The notes under the pieces were generated by a model. That model was not told the origin of the DNA. It saw only the letters and a program-made list of their open reading frames with translations, and ran no database searches. This document shows positions 11,705-49,616 of a stretch of DNA of 64,000 nt, piece after piece; within the stretch, counting starts at the first letter, position 1; each line of letters opens with the position of its first letter. The translations under genes and the position numbers were made by a program. Source of the stretch: Fervidicoccaceae archaeon. Lineage in GTDB: Archaea > Thermoproteota > Thermoprotei_A > Sulfolobales > Fervidicoccaceae. The DNA is taken from positions 1 through 64,000 of the forward strand of contig JAVYOA010000003.1 of NCBI GenBank assembly GCA_038734945.1, written 5' to 3'.

Positions 11705-12140
11705 AATAGCAAAGCACCTCCGGATCTTCAATAGCACTGAGGATCTTAATGGCATCTTCAACAGAGAGGTTTGGGGAAGTGCACTCTACAAGCACTATAT
11801 CCTTCTGTCTGAGGATCCTGCTCTCTCTGCATGCTCCCAGCGCCTCTGTAAGCAATGTCCAATCCTCATCTGCTCTGAATATGTGAAGTTCCTTCCATTC
11901 CTCGGGGATGGAGTCCAGCAATGATGGATCGTACCTTGTAACTACCTTCACTCCTCTTCCAGTTTTCCTATCTATTATTAAGATGATTTCATTCCCTTCT
12001 ATCTCGCAGTCAGTAATTGATTCGAGGACTTCATCTAACCATGGCTTTCCTTCCTGAGTTTCTCTAAGTATATAGTAGAGGCCCTCATTGCGTGGGTTAC
12101 TCTTCATCTTTTTATCATCTGCATTTAGGATCCTCTTCAT
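11688..12140 (-). CDS. Hypothetical protein overlapping the xpb start
   Basis: 150-aa acidic ORF; its 3' end overlaps the xpb RBS and start. Confidence 0.7.
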   Translation of the reverse strand: MKRILNADDKKMKSNPRNEGLYYILRETQEGKPWLDEVLESITDCEIEGNEIILIIDRKTGRGVKVVTRYDPSLLDSIPEEWKELHIFRADEDWTLLTEALGACRESRILRQKDIVLVECTSPNLSVEDAIKILSAIEDPEVLCYYGWAD

Positions 12141-16454: not shown

Positions 16455-17402
16455 CTAGTACAGCACTGAGACGATTATCGGCAATGTTATTGTAGCATCG
16501 CCATAAACAACTATGTGCTTTGCCTCCTTCTTCAGCTTTCCCCACGATATTGCCTCTCTTGTTTGTGCTCCGCTCAAGCTGCCATCATACTCAAAAGCAG
16601 TAGTGAGGTAAACAGCATAGTCTAGACCTCCCTTGAACTGATTCCACCAAATGACGTGGTGTTTGCTTATTCCTCCCCCGATAGATAAGGCAAGGCTTTT
16701 TTCATTAACAGATTCAAATACTAGATCCTCGATCAGTTTTTGATCGAGGGAGAAATCAAGCTCCACGTTGTTCAGCCTACCATATATTAGTGCGTTGGTT
16801 CCAAAGCTACCGTCATAAAATCCGGGAACAATTATCGGAACTTTTCTCTCATATGCAGCTCTAAGTATCGAATTGGGATCATCTATCCTCTTGCCAGCAG
16901 AATAAAGAAGCTCATTTGGAGATATTTTTTTCCCCTTGAACTCCTCCATAATTGTTTTTACGAATGATTCGATCACTGGTCCATAGCTCTCCATGGGAAT
17001 GAGAATGTTTCCTAGTCTATGAATTTCTAGGTCACGAAGCATTAAATCATCTAGTTCAAACCTTCCCCTGAAGTAACCAGGTCCAAGGGATTTAGCTATA
17101 TCATGATCTAGTGTTCCAGTCGTAGTTACTATTATATTGAAATGCCCGTCTCTGATCAGCTTCGCTATTAAACCTCTGAGACCAGTTGATACGATGTTTC
17201 CCGTAAAGGAAAGGAATCTCAATTTGCTCTCTCTTACCCCTTCTTTTAGTATCTCTGCTGCCTCTGATAGATGCCCAGCTGTGAAGCCATGAACCATTGA
17301 ATAGTATCTTAGGAGCTCCTTGCAGCTCCTTAGAACTTCGATGCTGGGGGGATCATCGATGATCTTTTCCCTGATCACGTCTTGTCTTCTCATTCTCTTC
17401 AT
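16455..17402 (-). CDS. dys: Deoxyhypusine synthase
   Basis: SFTGNIVSTGLRG, HRLGNI, GGGISKHH, DGSLSGAQTREAISWGK. Confidence 0.95.
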   Translation of the reverse strand: MKRMRRQDVIREKIIDDPPSIEVLRSCKELLRYYSMVHGFTAGHLSEAAEILKEGVRESKLRFLSFTGNIVSTGLRGLIAKLIRDGHFNIIVTTTGTLDHDIAKSLGPGYFRGRFELDDLMLRDLEIHRLGNILIPMESYGPVIESFVKTIMEEFKGKKISPNELLYSAGKRIDDPNSILRAAYERKVPIIVPGFYDGSFGTNALIYGRLNNVELDFSLDQKLIEDLVFESVNEKSLALSIGGGISKHHVIWWNQFKGGLDYAVYLTTAFEYDGSLSGAQTREAISWGKLKKEAKHIVVYGDATITLPIIVSVLY

Positions 17403-18847
17403 CCCTTCGTGACTCCAATTGGCTTAAGTCTTGCGACCAACTTCGCTATTCCAACTCTATCAGCCACTAGCGCAACCCTATCTACATCCTTGTAAGCAGA
17501 GGGTGCTTCCTCTACTAACACTCCCTTTGAGGCCGCTCTAACATATATTCCCTGCCTATTGAGCTCTCTAATGAGCTGGTCTGCTGTGTAGTTTTTAAGA
17601 GCCTTGGATCTGCTCATCCACCTGCCTGCTCCATGGGGAGCTGTGTACCACGTTCTTTCTCCTTTAGCAGATCCCACAAGAACATAGCTGGCTGTACCCA
17701 TTGAACCTGGGATTAACACTACCTGCCCCACGCTTCTATGATCGCTTGGAATCTCTGGATGTCCGGGAGGAAATGCCCTCGTAGCTCCTTTTCTGTGAAC
17801 TACAAGCCCTCTTCGCTTTCCATTCAAAGTATATTCCTCGTATTTTGCTATATTATGGGCTACATCGTAAACTATTTCCAATCCCAGCTTCTCATCATCT
17901 GTAGATAGGACTTTCTTGAAGGATTCCCTGACCCAATGTGTTATTAGCTGTCTGTTTGTCCATGCGTAGTTTGCTGCTGCTGCCATCGCCTTAAAATAGC
18001 TTTGTCCCTCTTCCGAGTTAAAAGGTATGCTTGCCAGCTCTCTGTCGGGAGGATTTATGCCGTATTTTCTCATTGCTCTCTCCATTATCTGGAGGTAGTC
18101 ACTAGCTACTTGGTGTCCAAGGCCTCTGCTCCCTGTATGTATCATGACTGTGACCTGACCCACGTTGGTAATTCCTATCTGCTTTGCTATCTGCTCATCG
18201 TATATTTTATCAACAACCTGGATTTCAAGGAAATGGTTTCCACTACCTAAGCTCCCTAGTTCTGGAGCTCCTCTGCTTTTAGCCCTTTGAGAGACCTTCT
18301 CGGAATCTGCCACTTTCCAGCTACCTCTCTCCTCAATATGTTCAGGATCTTCATTTCTTCCGTATCCCTTCTCTATTGCCCACTCCACGCCTCTATCAAG
18401 AACCTCATCAAGCTGCGCAGTTGAGACTTTGATTTTCCCCTCACTTCCAAGGCCGCTGGGGACATTTACTGAGAGCTCATCCACTAGGTCCTTTATTTTT
18501 CCTTCAATATCCTTTAGTTCGAGCTCGGTCCTCAACAGTCTTACTCCGCAGTTTATATCGTAGCCAACGCCTCCAGGGCTTATGACTCCCCCTTCCTCGA
18601 CGCTCATTCCAGCCACTCCTCCTATTGGGAATCCATATCCCTGGTGACCGTCTGGCATCACATAGCTTGCCCCCACAATTCCATTCAGACATGCCACATT
18701 TGCTGCCTGTTCGAGTGTCATATCCTCTCTCATCTTTGATAGGAGGAAGTCATCTGCAAATACTACTGCGGGAACCTTCATGCACGGCTTTTCTCCCTTC
18801 TCGATTATCCATTCATAGTCGTTCAATTTCCTGACGTTTACAGGCAC
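17399..18847 (-). CDS. rtcB: tRNA-splicing ligase RtcB
   Basis: PDGHQGYGFPIGG, GVGYDINCG, GSGNHFLE, HTGSRG, HNIAK, HRKGATR, PGSMG, HGAGR, EEAP.AYKD. Confidence 0.97.
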   Translation of the reverse strand: MPVNVRKLNDYEWIIEKGEKPCMKVPAVVFADDFLLSKMREDMTLEQAANVACLNGIVGASYVMPDGHQGYGFPIGGVAGMSVEEGGVISPGGVGYDINCGVRLLRTELELKDIEGKIKDLVDELSVNVPSGLGSEGKIKVSTAQLDEVLDRGVEWAIEKGYGRNEDPEHIEERGSWKVADSEKVSQRAKSRGAPELGSLGSGNHFLEIQVVDKIYDEQIAKQIGITNVGQVTVMIHTGSRGLGHQVASDYLQIMERAMRKYGINPPDRELASIPFNSEEGQSYFKAMAAAANYAWTNRQLITHWVRESFKKVLSTDDEKLGLEIVYDVAHNIAKYEEYTLNGKRRGLVVHRKGATRAFPPGHPEIPSDHRSVGQVVLIPGSMGTASYVLVGSAKGERTWYTAPHGAGRWMSRSKALKNYTADQLIRELNRQGIYVRAASKGVLVEEAPSAYKDVDRVALVADRVGIAKLVARLKPIGVTKG

Positions 18848-19007
18848 GTTTCACCACCCTGCTCTTCTGAAGCTCCTGAGATTTTTGTGAAAATTCAATT
18901 TGCGAAAACTGAGCAATAGCAATTCTATTATAAGAAAATACCATTATAAGCTTGTCCGATGCATTCCGAAGCAAACAGTTATTTTTTTCCTCTTCCACAT
19001 AGGAATT

Positions 19008-19076
19008 GGGCAATGATTTGAATGGCGCAATATATGCCTCTCTGAATTCATGATGAGGGGCCAAAGCTATGAGCCC
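19008..19076 (+). ncRNA. Box C/D guide sRNA predicted to direct 2'-O-methylation of U34 in tRNA-Gln(UUG)
   Basis: Terminal stem GGGC(19008-11)/GCCC(19073-76). Variant C box ATGATTT (19013-19) matched by variant D box ATGA (19069-72), a compensatory U-A pair. D' CTGA (19042-45), C' ATGATGA (19050-56). The 12-nt D guide GGGGCCAAAGCT is complementary to GCUUUGGCCCC. Confidence 0.8.
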
Positions 19077-19758
19077 GGTCAAGCAAAATTGCTTTTCCAT
19101 TTTCCATGTATATGACCCTTGAATTTTGAAATCTCGATATAATCCCCTCGTCGTGAGATGTCATCACTATGCCTGTCTCTCTCAGCTCCTCTCTGAGTAT
19201 TCTTTCAAGAATAGCTCTCCTCTCTTTATCCAGATGGGAAAAAGGTTCATCTAGGAAAAGAAGGGATGGTTCTATTGAGATTGCTCTTACTATGGAAACA
19301 AGCTGCATTTGACCAGAAGAAAGCTTCCTAGCATCTTTCTCGAGTATATCCTCAATTTTGAGCTCCTCCATCAGCTTAATTGTTCTCTCATATACTTCCT
19401 TTCCATTCTTTCCTCTTATGCTTAGCCCAAGCAGGAGGTTTTCAAGAACTGTTCCCCTTACAATAATAGGCTTCTCATGAACAAATGTTATCTCTCTTCT
19501 GATTTCGATTTTCTTATTCTCAGGGAGAGACCAGAAGTTGGAATTGTTTACAAGGACATCTCCCCTAGAGGGTTTGTATATGAGTGCTGCTATTTTCATC
19601 AGGGTTGTCTTTCCTGCTCCATTTGGACCGAAAATTATTGTGGTCTCTCCACTTCGAAACGAAATAGTAATACCATCCAGAACCAAGTGGGCCTTGTTTC
19701 TATATTTATATTCAACGTCTTTCAAGACAACCTCAATCGGTTTCGCTTGCACTGCCAA
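19048..19758 (-). CDS. Tungstate-type ABC transporter ATP-binding protein (TupC-like)
   Basis: GPNGAGKT, LSSGQ, LDEP; in an operon with TupA/TupB-like genes. Confidence 0.88.
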   Translation of the reverse strand: MAVQAKPIEVVLKDVEYKYRNKAHLVLDGITISFRSGETTIIFGPNGAGKTTLMKIAALIYKPSRGDVLVNNSNFWSLPENKKIEIRREITFVHEKPIIVRGTVLENLLLGLSIRGKNGKEVYERTIKLMEELKIEDILEKDARKLSSGQMQLVSIVRAISIEPSLLFLDEPFSHLDKERRAILERILREELRETGIVMTSHDEGIISRFQNSRVIYMENGKAILLDRAHSFGPSS

Positions 19759-20380: not shown

Positions 20381-21282
20381 CCATCTCCTGCTAGCATGTT
20401 CCAGACATTGTTCAGAAATTCCTCTTTTCCATATGCTGGAAAAAAGAGAGGCGAGCCGTAGTCAGATACTCCAAAATTGCCAATGAGCTCTTGACTTCCA
20501 TCAACAAAATCAACAAACTCCTTTGCAGCTTCAGCTTCACTCCCCCTGCATCCAGAAACTAGATAGGAGCTATAGACGTTTATGAGCTCAGTCGAGTTAT
20601 AAAACAGAATAGTTAAATTGGGAATGCTTCCGCTCTTCTCGAATACAAGATAGGTTCCTATGTCGCTGAGAGTGTAGGCTTTGAGCTCGTTTGCCATTAT
20701 CAAAGCCTGATCCATTCCTCCTCCTATTACTTTATACCATTTCTTTCCCATAGGGTTCAATCCAGTTTCATTCCAAATCTGGAGCTCTTTCACATTTGTA
20801 CCTGAGTTATCTCCCCTGCTTATAAAAACAGCTTCATCTCTCTCTCCAGCTAAGAATATCCTAGTGAAAGCTTCCGAAGCATTATGAGCTGTGCTCACGT
20901 TAGCAGGATCGTTCTTAGGACCAACAATCACAAAGAAGTTATAGGCAAATATGTGATGGTAATAAATCGAGGAAGTGGATAAGTATTTTTTTTCTAGGCT
21001 CGGTGCATGGACGAGAACAGCGCAGGATTCTCCTCTCCTGGCTAGCTCAAGAGCAGCTCCGCTTCCAACTGGTATGAACTCTACGGAAATCCAGGGATGG
21101 GAGGACTCAAAAGCTGAGCCAAGATAGTCCAAAAGCCCCGTAGCATAAAGCGAAGTCGTAGTTGAAACTAGGAGTCTCGTCTGCTGCGGGAAAAGAATGT
21201 GATATGTGAAAATGGAGAGAATCGCTATAGTAGCAAAAGCTGCCAGAAAAACATAAACAATTCTGAAGCTAAGCTTGTACAA
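20377..21282 (-). CDS. Tungstate ABC transporter substrate-binding protein (TupA-like)
   Basis: STTTS tungstate-binding motif, GSGAAL, VHAP, SRGDNSGT, YTLSD.GTY. Confidence 0.9.
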   Translation of the reverse strand: MYKLSFRIVYVFLAAFATIAILSIFTYHILFPQQTRLLVSTTTSLYATGLLDYLGSAFESSHPWISVEFIPVGSGAALELARRGESCAVLVHAPSLEKKYLSTSSIYYHHIFAYNFFVIVGPKNDPANVSTAHNASEAFTRIFLAGERDEAVFISRGDNSGTNVKELQIWNETGLNPMGKKWYKVIGGGMDQALIMANELKAYTLSDIGTYLVFEKSGSIPNLTILFYNSTELINVYSSYLVSGCRGSEAEAAKEFVDFVDGSQELIGNFGVSDYGSPLFFPAYGKEEFLNNVWNMLAGDG

Positions 21283-24293: not shown

Positions 24294-24324
24294 TTTCTAC
24301 AAAGAGAGGGGGGAGGAGGCTGGT

Positions 24325-24362
24325 CCAAAGCCCCGCATCCTTGGCCGCTAGACTACCCGGCT
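24325..24362 (-). tRNA. tRNA-Gln(TTG) 5' half (positions 1-37), probable split, trans-spliced tRNA gene
   Basis: AGCCGGG-TA-GTCTAGCGGCCAAGGAT-G-CGGGG-CT-TTG-G: acceptor 5' strand, full D arm, anticodon stem 5' strand and TTG anticodon (24326-24328). It continues into ACCAGCCTCCTCCCCCCTCTCTTT with no T arm and no 3' acceptor strand. Confidence 0.85.
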
Positions 24363-48137: not shown

Positions 48138-49616
48138 GTGCCAGAACGCATGTTACCTCCAGTGATACCTCAGTTCATTGAGGTTGATGATATCGTAAAG
48201 TTCAGCATGTTCTTGACATATATCAAATATGGGCTTTATTTTATTTGGATAGTTCCACTTTATAGAGGAATAGTAACATTCAAGTCATGGAAAACCCATT
48301 ATCAGAGCCTTGTGAAGATTCCCGCGAGAACTGAGGCTATACCCATTCTTCGCTATCCAACTGTAGCTGTTGTTATACCAGCTAGAAATGCATCCAAGTT
48401 CATAAGAAGCTCGATCCTTTCCGTTCTCAACCAAAGTGTTTTACCTAGAACTATATATGTTCTGAATGATGCATCCAAGGACAATACCTTAGAAGTTGTT
48501 CAAAATTTAATAGGAGAGCTATCGGGAGAGCTTATTGAAGTGAGAGCTGAAAAAGGGAGAACGCTTCTGAAGTATCGCGTTCACCTGAGAACAGGGAAGG
48601 AAATATATATAGCTATCATGTCATTCGCCTCCCATTCGGGAAAGCCAAAAATGATAAATTCTGTGCTAGGAGAAGTAGCAAAGGAACATGACTACATGCT
48701 AGTGTTAGATTCTGATACTATAGTGGAGAAAAAATATATTGAAAAATTAATGCATTTCATGAATAAGGACGAGAGTGTTGTTGGGGCAAATGGCACGGTA
48801 CTACTATGGAAACCGGAGGGAAGCGGAAAAGCATCATGGTTCTTCGCAAGAGCCTTTAGGAATATCGCCTCCCTCTATTATCTTCTCACAGTAAGATTCT
48901 CGGAAAGTGTTTTTAAGAGTGTTAACAGCCTAAATGGTAGCTGTGCTCTATATAAAGTAAAACCACTTATAGAAGTTGGAGGAATACCAGAGGATACTTA
49001 TGTAGAGGATACTTCAATAAGTTGGGAGCTTCAGCTTAGAGGATATAATGTTCTATACATACCTGGAGCTTATTCCTACACGGTTGATCCATCCTCTCCA
49101 AGAAGATTTTTCTCTAAGGTCTTCAGAATAACCTTGGGTATACAGAAGCTTTTCATTACAAGAGCAAAGAAGCTTGTTAGGAAAAGGAGGAGAAATCTTG
49201 TACTTACTTCTCTCTATACAAGCCTAGGCAGTCTTCCTTTCATTTTTGTCATTGCCAACACCATAATTTCAGCTATTCTTGCAGAGTTTGGAATCTATGG
49301 TGGCGGTCTATCTCAGTATATTTTCGGATCTCTCCAGTTCACTCCCATATCAATCGTACTAGCATTCATCTATAAGTACCCTCTCAGCTACTTGCTACTG
49401 AGCTATCTGATAGGCATACTTGAATCCTTTGCGATCTATAAGTTCCTAGAAAGGCTGTACAGAGAGGAGCCAAGCATAAGAGTATCCTTGAAGTCAGCAG
49501 GAAAAACAATAGTACTCGTGCCTCTAATACTGTGGGTGCAGGCATTCATAGCTCTAATTTCTCTCCCAATCTCAATATATCATGTCATTGCGAATAAGAA
49601 AATCAGCAGGTGGTAG
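48138..49616 (+). CDS. Membrane glycosyltransferase family 2 (processive synthase-like)
   Basis: VVIPARN, LNDASKD, GKP, LDSD, LNGSCALY, VED; N- and C-terminal TM segments. Confidence 0.85.
   Translation: MPERMLPPVIPQFIEVDDIVKFSMFLTYIKYGLYFIWIVPLYRGIVTFKSWKTHYQSLVKIPARTEAIPILRYPTVAVVIPARNASKFIRSSILSVLNQSVLPRTIYVLNDASKDNTLEVVQNLIGELSGELIEVRAEKGRTLLKYRVHLRTGKEIYIAIMSFASHSGKPKMINSVLGEVAKEHDYMLVLDSDTIVEKKYIEKLMHFMNKDESVVGANGTVLLWKPEGSGKASWFFARAFRNIASLYYLLTVRFSESVFKSVNSLNGSCALYKVKPLIEVGGIPEDTYVEDTSISWELQLRGYNVLYIPGAYSYTVDPSSPRRFFSKVFRITLGIQKLFITRAKKLVRKRRRNLVLTSLYTSLGSLPFIFVIANTIISAILAEFGIYGGGLSQYIFGSLQFTPISIVLAFIYKYPLSYLLLSYLIGILESFAIYKFLERLYREEPSIRVSLKSAGKTIVLVPLILWVQAFIALISLPISIYHVIANKKISRW

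Follow-up and report, generated by a model that had tools for sequence, protein, structure and literature searches.

A diverged box C/D sRNA of the sR14 type in Fervidicoccaceae and its probable action on the wobble U34 of a trans-spliced tRNA-Gln

A stretch of 64,000 nucleotides from the genome of a Fervidicoccaceae archaeon (GCA_038734945.1; contig JAVYOA010000003.1, positions 1 to 64,000; hereafter, the window) carries, at positions 19008-19076 of the forward strand, a 69-nt locus that reads as a box C/D sRNA and whose D guide is complementary to the anticodon region of tRNA-Gln(UUG), a tRNA encoded in this genome as two separate halves. We consider it probable that this RNA is an effectively single-guide orthologue of the sR14 type, which directs methylation of U34 of tRNA-Gln(UUG) after trans-splicing. 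In the mechanism that we propose, the sRNA would assemble with L7Ae, Nop5 and fibrillarin; the two tRNA-Gln transcripts would be joined between positions 37 and 38, the splicing endonuclease cutting a bulge-helix-bulge and RtcB ligating the exons; and the D guide would pair with residues G31 to C40/41 of tRNA-Gln(UUG), placing a 2'-O-methyl group on the wobble U34. The sRNP would prefer the joined tRNA, most likely to the point that no other substrate is used efficiently, with methylation coming after trans-splicing. We infer the expression of the sRNA, the methylation of U34, the joined tRNA and the order of events from sequence (NB: hereafter, G000 designates the genome under study and other G numbers its relatives; C, L and f numbers designate contigs, loci and families, respectively).

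The sRNA gene and its surroundings

The elements of the locus are listed in Table 1. Its layout is that of a box C/D guide RNA, as put forward in the initial annotation, and the 12-nt guide that had been placed between C' (AUGAUGA) and D (AUGA) is present; in addition, the C'-guide-D part is conserved order-wide, and the same locus is recognized by the Rfam sR14 family in two genomes of family f13 (see below). The layout and the conservation together mark the locus as a genuine box C/D sRNA gene. An internal D'/C' pair, of the kind found in archaeal box C/D sRNAs, is formed by CUGA-AUUC-AUGAUGA, and the D spacer has 12 nt, whereas the C-D' spacer has 22 nt, against the norm of about 12 nt for archaeal C/D guide spacers (PMC7229835). 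Boxes C and D, AUGAUUU and AUGA, depart from the consensus (RUGAUGA and CUGA), with the GA dinucleotides for the sheared pairs retained, and both variants, the U at position 6 of box C and the AUGA box D, co-occur in G002, from the same genus, and in G004, from another genus of the same family. In a k-turn, position 6 of box C pairs with position 1 of box D, and U6-A1 would be a Watson-Crick pair.

Table 1. Elements of the sRNA locus, its neighbours and the tRNA-Gln halves (window positions unless a contig of G000 is named)
Feature	Position	Strand	Remarks
RtcB tRNA-splicing ligase gene	17399..18847	-	Pfam PF01139, E = 3.6e-175; direct neighbour of the sRNA gene
A/T-rich TATA-like element, TTATTTTTTT	18979..18988	+	lies some 20-29 nt before the 5' end of the sRNA
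Terminal stem, 5' strand, GGGC	19008..19011	+	pairs with GCCC at 19073-19076 (4 bp)
Box C, AUGAUUU	19013..19019	+	U, not G, at position 6; one A precedes the box
C-D' spacer, 22 nt	19020..19041	+	between box C and box D'
Box D', CUGA	19042..19045	+	followed by an AUUC loop, then C'
ABC-transporter ATPase gene	19048..19758	-	last 29 nt (...SFGPSS and stop) antisense to C', guide and D
Box C', AUGAUGA	19050..19056	+	position kept in 31 of 41 related genomes
D guide, GGGGCCAAAGCU, 12 nt	19057..19068	+	complementary to G30/G31-C41 of joined tRNA-Gln(UUG); A19064 (D+5) opposite U34
Box D, AUGA	19069..19072	+	A, not C, at position 1; same register as CUGA of relatives
Terminal stem, 3' strand, GCCC	19073..19076	+	read from sequence
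Trailer of the tRNA-Gln(UUG) 5' half, ACCAGCCUCCUCCCCCCUCUC	24304..24324	-	pairs with the 3'-half leader in the bulge-helix-bulge
tRNA-Gln(UUG) 5' half, A1 to G37	24325..24362	-	followed by ACCAGCC...
tRNA-Gln(CUG) 5' half	G000:C4:17898-17935	+	identical to the UUG half up to position 33
tRNA-Gln 3' half	G000:C9:274250-274212	-	begins C38-CCCCG

Applied to the whole genome, a strict double-guide grammar (RTGATGA...CTGA) returned a single sRNA, and none in each of five shuffles. This grammar is too strict for the organism and was replaced by a half-mer scan of the same genome, with a C'-like box, 11-13 nt and (C/A)UGA as the pattern. The scan gave 140 sites, in 12 of which the guide is perfectly complementary to rRNA or tRNA over 9 nt, compared to four with reversed guides and three with reverse-complemented guides. 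AUGA serves as the D box in seven of these 12 half-mers, and the odd D box is thus normal for the organism. The minimum-free-energy fold of the sRNA was no better than those of shuffled sequences (z = -0.22), a measure that is uninformative for k-turn RNAs. Judging from its position, the TATA-like element is a possible archaeal promoter; a scan for promoters and terminators of the sigma-70 type gave no match, its consensus being a bacterial one that does not apply to archaea. In about 3% of one metatranscriptome run, from a study in which this DNA occurs, no read came from the stretch, a sample that has no bearing on expression.

The C-D' spacer has no target of at least eight Watson-Crick pairs in rRNA or tRNA, the number of its 11-mer complements in the genome (eight, with roughly eight expected) is at chance level, and it is not kept even in the genus mate G002. 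It folds with -4.8 kcal/mol (z = -1.0) and may form a weak, 4-bp hairpin. Given the absence of an rRNA or tRNA target and the chance level of complements in the genome, this spacer is probably not a second guide, and we read the sRNA as, effectively, a single-guide RNA. Among relatives the 5' part takes several forms. The D' spacer of the f13 homologues is 11-13 nt long, and in three of them (L009, L004 and L019) the D' guides contain CUAGACU-like stretches complementary to the D-arm of tRNA-Gln (AGUCUAG); the target position given by the +5 rule disagrees with the G18 named in the literature. Homologues from f11 (L005, L018, L024), f10 (L007, L016) and f7 (L013, L014) have, in place of the C-D' spacer, a stable hairpin whose stem reaches 9 bp; the 5' boxes of these homologues are degenerate, and conservation is limited to the C'-guide-D half.

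The sRNA gene lies next to rtcB both in G000 and in its genus mate G002, an arrangement seen neither in G004 nor in G012, and the tRNA-Gln(UUG) 5' half is 5 kb away. All three core proteins of an archaeal box C/D sRNP are encoded in the genome: fibrillarin and Nop5 side by side (PF01269 and PF01798, at C9:232144-233654), and two proteins of the L7Ae family (two PF01248 matches). In addition to RtcB, two EndA paralogues are encoded, as expected where the endonuclease is heteromeric and tolerates relaxed motifs.

The split tRNA-Gln and its pairing with the guide

The genome (1.34 Mb in nine contigs, 99.95% complete) has no intact tRNA-Gln gene, and the tRNA-Gln halves lie at separate loci, which makes this a split tRNA. 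In the whole genome, ARAGORN found 33 tRNAs, none of them for Gln; the Rfam tRNA family gave 43 matches, 41 of which over the cut-off, and all 41 were typed by ARAGORN, again with no Gln. Both ARAGORN and Rfam at the gathering score miss the tRNA-Gln(UUG) 5' half. The 3' half was not found with 12-mer seeds from the reverse complement of the trailer; it was found by searching the whole genome with a pattern made of the T-arm and the complement of the acceptor strand, and its locus is exactly that of one of the two weak Rfam tRNA matches. It consists of a leader, ...GGGGGUUGAGGAGGCUGG-GGAG-AU, followed by C38-CCCCG-CGAC-CGGGG-UUCGAAU-CCCCG-CCCGGCU-A-CCA.

The two halves were read with the canonical geometry of the bulge-helix-bulge. 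The outer helix is formed by CCAGCCUCCUC with GAGGAGGCUGG (11 bp), the central 4-bp helix by C32-U35 with GGAG, and the two 3-nt bulges, G36-G37-A and A-U-C38, set the cuts between positions 37 and 38. In a cofold of the two transcripts the trailer is paired with the 3' leader and the acceptor stem is closed. The joined tRNA-Gln(UUG) reads G31-CUUUGG-C38-CCC; a 3' half starting YCCC, with C or U at position 38, was anticipated from the guide in the initial annotation, and the half found on another contig of the same genome, with C38-CCCCG at its start, agrees with this prediction. The trailer of the CUG 5' half contains CCUCCUCAACCCCC, which pairs with GGGGGUUGAGGAGG; this segment, too, belongs to the single 3' leader, where it overlaps, without coinciding with, the part used by the UUG trailer. 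One 3' half is common to the UUG and CUG 5' halves.

The guide was compared with the 16S and 23S rRNAs, with every tRNA match, and with tRNA-Gln both in its joined forms and as precursors. A guide was taken to have at least 9 bp with its target at D+5, and the joined tRNA-Gln(UUG) offers the best target by this measure, with 12 of 12 pairs (11 Watson-Crick and one G-U) and U34 at D+5. The second target is the unspliced 5' half, with nine Watson-Crick pairs and one G-U: eight contiguous pairs (a U.G and seven Watson-Crick over G30-G37), a mismatch, two further pairs with the trailer, and another mismatch. The remaining matches in rRNA and tRNA have eight pairs each, which is at chance level. 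The pairing claims made earlier for this locus hold in each respect, in that CCAAAGC pairs with G31-G37 of the 5' half, A19064 at D+5 faces U34, the unspliced half pairs more poorly (two mismatches) and the full duplex forms with the joined tRNA only; nor did 16S, 23S or any tRNA yield a better target.

The predicted duplex energies, at 37 C and 80 C, respectively, are -23.5 and -9.7 kcal/mol for the joined tRNA-Gln(UUG), -14.5 and -3.9 kcal/mol for the unspliced 5' half, and -19.8 and -7.5 kcal/mol for the joined tRNA-Gln(CUG), which has an A-C mismatch at the target site. A search for a guide directed at C34 of the CUG isoacceptor (GGCCAGAGC) gave eight sites, none in a box context. Of the guide footprint, 7 nt fall in the 5' exon and 3-4 nt in the 3' exon; this would make the joined tRNA the preferred substrate, so that methylation would follow trans-splicing.

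Conservation of the guide and structure of the target gene

The pattern TGA-N4-GGGCCAAAGC-N3-GA was searched in 41 genomes, our own included, with the reversed pattern as the control. The C'-guide-D module was found in 31 of the 41 genomes and in 12 of 13 families (30 of 37 among genomes that are at least 90% complete), in one copy per genome except for two in G038; the control had no match in any of the 41. All 31 genomes with the module share one and the same 10-nt guide core, GGGCCAAAGC. Likewise, BLAST matches of positions 18990-19095 to 40 relatives were almost confined to the C'-guide-D part, and 24 parsed homologues share the guide core while their terminal stems, C-D' spacers and flanks all vary. 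Taken alone, GCTTTGG shows no enrichment in the window (11.0 matches expected, 15 observed), so that the evidence lies in conservation and box context and not in this 7-mer. In G002 and G004 the sRNA locus is purely intergenic, with no overlap with the ABC gene; the conservation is therefore no by-product of coding constraint on that gene.

Within the eight-genome family, the module is found only in G000, G002 and G004; it was not found in the other five (G001, G003, G005, G006 and G007), two of which are 98% and 91% complete. Matches to the pattern with at most one mismatch in these five genomes were rejected as sRNAs, as they come without C' boxes. Degenerate homologues are possible in f9 (G035 and G015); at L184 (G035:C5:59835-59849), a possible minimal half-mer homologue, a stem GAGGGGC/GGCCCCUC flanks GAUGUCA-UG-GGGCCAAAGCG-UUGA.

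At the gathering score, Rfam reports only a tRNA-Pro in the 64-kb window. The best match below threshold is sR14 (RF01145) at the sRNA locus, with 25.7 bits and E = 4e-5 (19.6 bits in a second scan), below the gathering score of 38 bits that defines membership in the family. At exactly the guide-bearing loci of the two f13 relatives that score highest, RF01145 lies above the cut-off, with 47.3 bits in G029 and 40 bits in G039, and it does so in one of 10 control genomes, a list that includes Sulfolobus acidocaldarius. In line with that list, its seed is presumably from Sulfolobus. The shared guide module, and the fact that in G029 and G039 the loci with this module are those that RF01145 recognizes over its cut-off, point to homology with sR14, and the sRNA would then be a diverged orthologue of the Sulfolobus sR14 type.

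Of the 31 genomes with the module, 26 allowed the structure of the tRNA-Gln(UUG) gene to be read. The gene is uninterrupted across the guide footprint in 14; it has a short intron at 37/38 in six, of which G010 has another at 32/33; in two its sole intron is at 32/33; its parts lie about 150 nt apart in one (G022); and it is split onto distant loci in three (G000, G002 and G004). It is thus interrupted inside the footprint in 12 of the 26, with the guide core the same in all. Over these 26 genomes the core never tracks intron or trailer sequences and matches the mature tRNA; being the same whether or not the gene is interrupted, it points to selection on the mature sequence. Position 38 is C in 24 of the 26 and A in two genomes of one genus (G017, L050; G037, L173), where A38 stands opposite an unchanged guide G. 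A mismatch at this place, D+9 of the guide, thus appears to be tolerated, and pairing of residue 38 is not strictly required.

In all eight genomes of the family, which represent five genera, both tRNA-Gln isoacceptors are split at 37/38 into free-standing halves (loci L031-L042 and L161-L170), with two 3' halves in G005 and in G006 and one in each of the others; the UUG and CUG 5' halves use a common 3' half in some genera and one each in others. From this distribution, the split looks old and family-wide and not sporadic. In the literature that we searched there was no report of a family-wide split tRNA-Gln, and none linking Fervidicoccus and split tRNA. Outside the family, the two parts of tRNA-Gln(UUG) in G022 (L056/L178, at G022:C4:229137-229375) are separated by about 150 nt with A/T-rich, promoter-like stretches, and represent either a long intron or adjacent halves; in G033 (L064/L179) the halves of tRNA-Gln(CUG) are on different contigs. 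Together, G022 and G033 suggest further, independent splits outside the family. Introns at 32/33, the position of the split in Nanoarchaeum equitans, are present in tRNA-Gln genes of G010 (L044, L045), G021 (L054, L055) and G033 (L065).

Order of methylation and trans-splicing, and relation to known systems

Given a working sRNA, methylation after joining is likely on the present sequence data, and the strongest argument for this order comes from the comparative gene-structure data. The reverse order, in which the sRNA would act on U34 before trans-splicing, with the 5' half, alone or annealed to the 3' half, as its substrate, is in our judgement unlikely. The unspliced half does offer eight contiguous pairs to the guide and two more, and the mature tRNAs of G017 and G037, with A38, presumably form a functional duplex with the same pattern of seven pairs, a mismatch and three pairs. 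Moreover, the trailer in G006 starts with CCCU, and full pairing with the guide would be expected there; yet no sRNA was found in G006. In the precursor, however, nucleotides 32-35 and the trailer are already paired with the 3' leader in the bulge-helix-bulge; the duplex with the unspliced half is predicted to be much weaker than that with the joined tRNA at 80 C; and the GGG at the 5' end of the guide always fits exon 2, and never the divergent intron or trailer sequences of relatives. Archaeal C/D RNPs are described as recognizing at most 10 nt, with substrates that form 9-10 bp being modified efficiently (PMC7229835), which also speaks against the unspliced half.

Two further readings concern what the RNA does once the tRNA has been joined. 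Its main role could be that of a chaperone, a splint or a quality check of the joined tRNA-Gln, tied to rtcB, and not methylation; the guide footprint does cross the exon-exon junction, the sRNA gene adjoins rtcB in G000 and G002, and the 5' half is close by, but the sRNA is kept in 14 genomes with an uninterrupted tRNA-Gln(UUG) gene and lacks the rtcB neighbour in G004 and G012, the tRNA body already holds the exon ends together, and the D+5 geometry on U34 is conserved, Um34 having been observed in Sulfolobus (PMC7668247). We regard such a role as very improbable. Hardly more probable is a reading in which the sRNP, with a footprint present in correctly joined tRNA-Gln(UUG) only, would be a junction-specific checkpoint. 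Um34 would then mark this molecule and not the CUG chimera or the free halves, and the sRNA gene would adjoin rtcB because ligation and marking are co-expressed, or even because the RNA acts like a splint on the cleaved exon ends. Least probable of all, and in our view almost negligible, is that box-like motifs arose by chance in the intergenic sequence and antisense to the 3' end of the ABC ATPase gene, with no sRNA made. The off-consensus boxes C and D, the fold that is no better than shuffles and the absence of an Rfam match at the gathering score at the sRNA locus would fit this, but the occurrence of the module in 31 genomes with none for the control, the purely intergenic loci of G002 and G004, for which coding constraint is no explanation, the homologous loci of G029 and G039, where RF01145 scores over its cut-off, and the enrichment of C'/D half-mers for 9-nt complements of stable RNAs (12, with four and three in the controls) would not. 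The action of an sR14-type guide on U34 of the joined tRNA-Gln(UUG) is the reading that we retain.

Guides to this position have precedents. For tRNA-Gln(UUG) of S. acidocaldarius, U34 is given as a C/D target, with reference to Ziesche 2004, and mass spectrometry showed Um34 there (PMC7668247), so that the Sulfolobus precedent invoked in the initial annotation is in print. A U34 guide of tRNA-Gln is thus already known, and the sRNA extends a known guide family to Fervidicoccaceae. It resembles Sulfolobus sR14 (RF01145) in the C'-guide-D module (GGGCCAAAGC, N and the D box), in having U34 as the D+5 target and in the type of locus, and differs from it in its AUGAUUU and AUGA boxes, a score under the cut-off, a C-D' spacer of 22 nt with no target, and a target tRNA that is trans-spliced. 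Pyrobaculum sR27 is likewise described as a C/D guide, its one tRNA target being the wobble U34 of tRNA-Gln (PMC6009581); it is from a different order, and the likeness is one of described target. In Haloferax volcanii and other Euryarchaeota, a C/D guide of pre-tRNA-Trp also directs 2'-O-methylation of position 34 in an interrupted tRNA; that guide is encoded in the intron and acts on the precursor (PMC11408192), whereas the guide described here has a gene of its own and a footprint that matches the exon-exon junction. The fit to the junction implies an order opposite to that of the tRNA-Trp guide.

As for the target, the split tRNAs of N. equitans share with those described here GC-rich, complementary leaders and trailers, joining through a bulge-helix-bulge and two isoacceptor 5' halves per 3' half, the two tRNA-Glu 5' halves of that organism sharing one 3' half (PMC3218864). 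The tRNA-Gln of N. equitans is split at 32/33 (PMC3218864), whereas here it is split at 37/38, in a free-standing genome of 1.34 Mb and in eight of eight family genomes. Split tRNAs are also reported from Caldivirga and from four species of Desulfurococcales (Asp and Lys), and the family-wide split of tRNA-Gln contrasts with the sporadic, recent splits in the latter (PMC3218864). In the portions of the split-tRNA literature returned by our search, no guide RNA that spans a trans-splice junction is mentioned. Over at least 12 families the guide core has not changed, whereas the target gene may be whole, may carry introns at 37/38 or 32/33, or may be split. This provides a clean comparative argument that this C/D guide reads the mature tRNA, and a natural system for studying the order of guided modification and (trans-)splicing; to tRNA specialists, the family-wide split of tRNA-Gln may matter more than the sRNA.

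Other candidate guides emerged from the half-mer scan. Three more half-mers in the window, at 48312 (+), 12107 (-) and 1121 (-), have perfect 9-nt complements in stable RNAs, namely tRNA-Cys, the T-arm of three tRNA-Leu genes and 23S rRNA near position 1220, respectively; that at 12107 is complete, with all four boxes (C, D', C', D) as well as a terminal stem. A further half-mer, AUGAUGA-UGGUUAAAAGCG-AUGA, at about position 21073 of G000:C4 (-), has no clear box C upstream; it can pair with the tRNA-Lys(UUU) anticodon loop, which would place D+5 on U34, and may be a second wobble-U guide.
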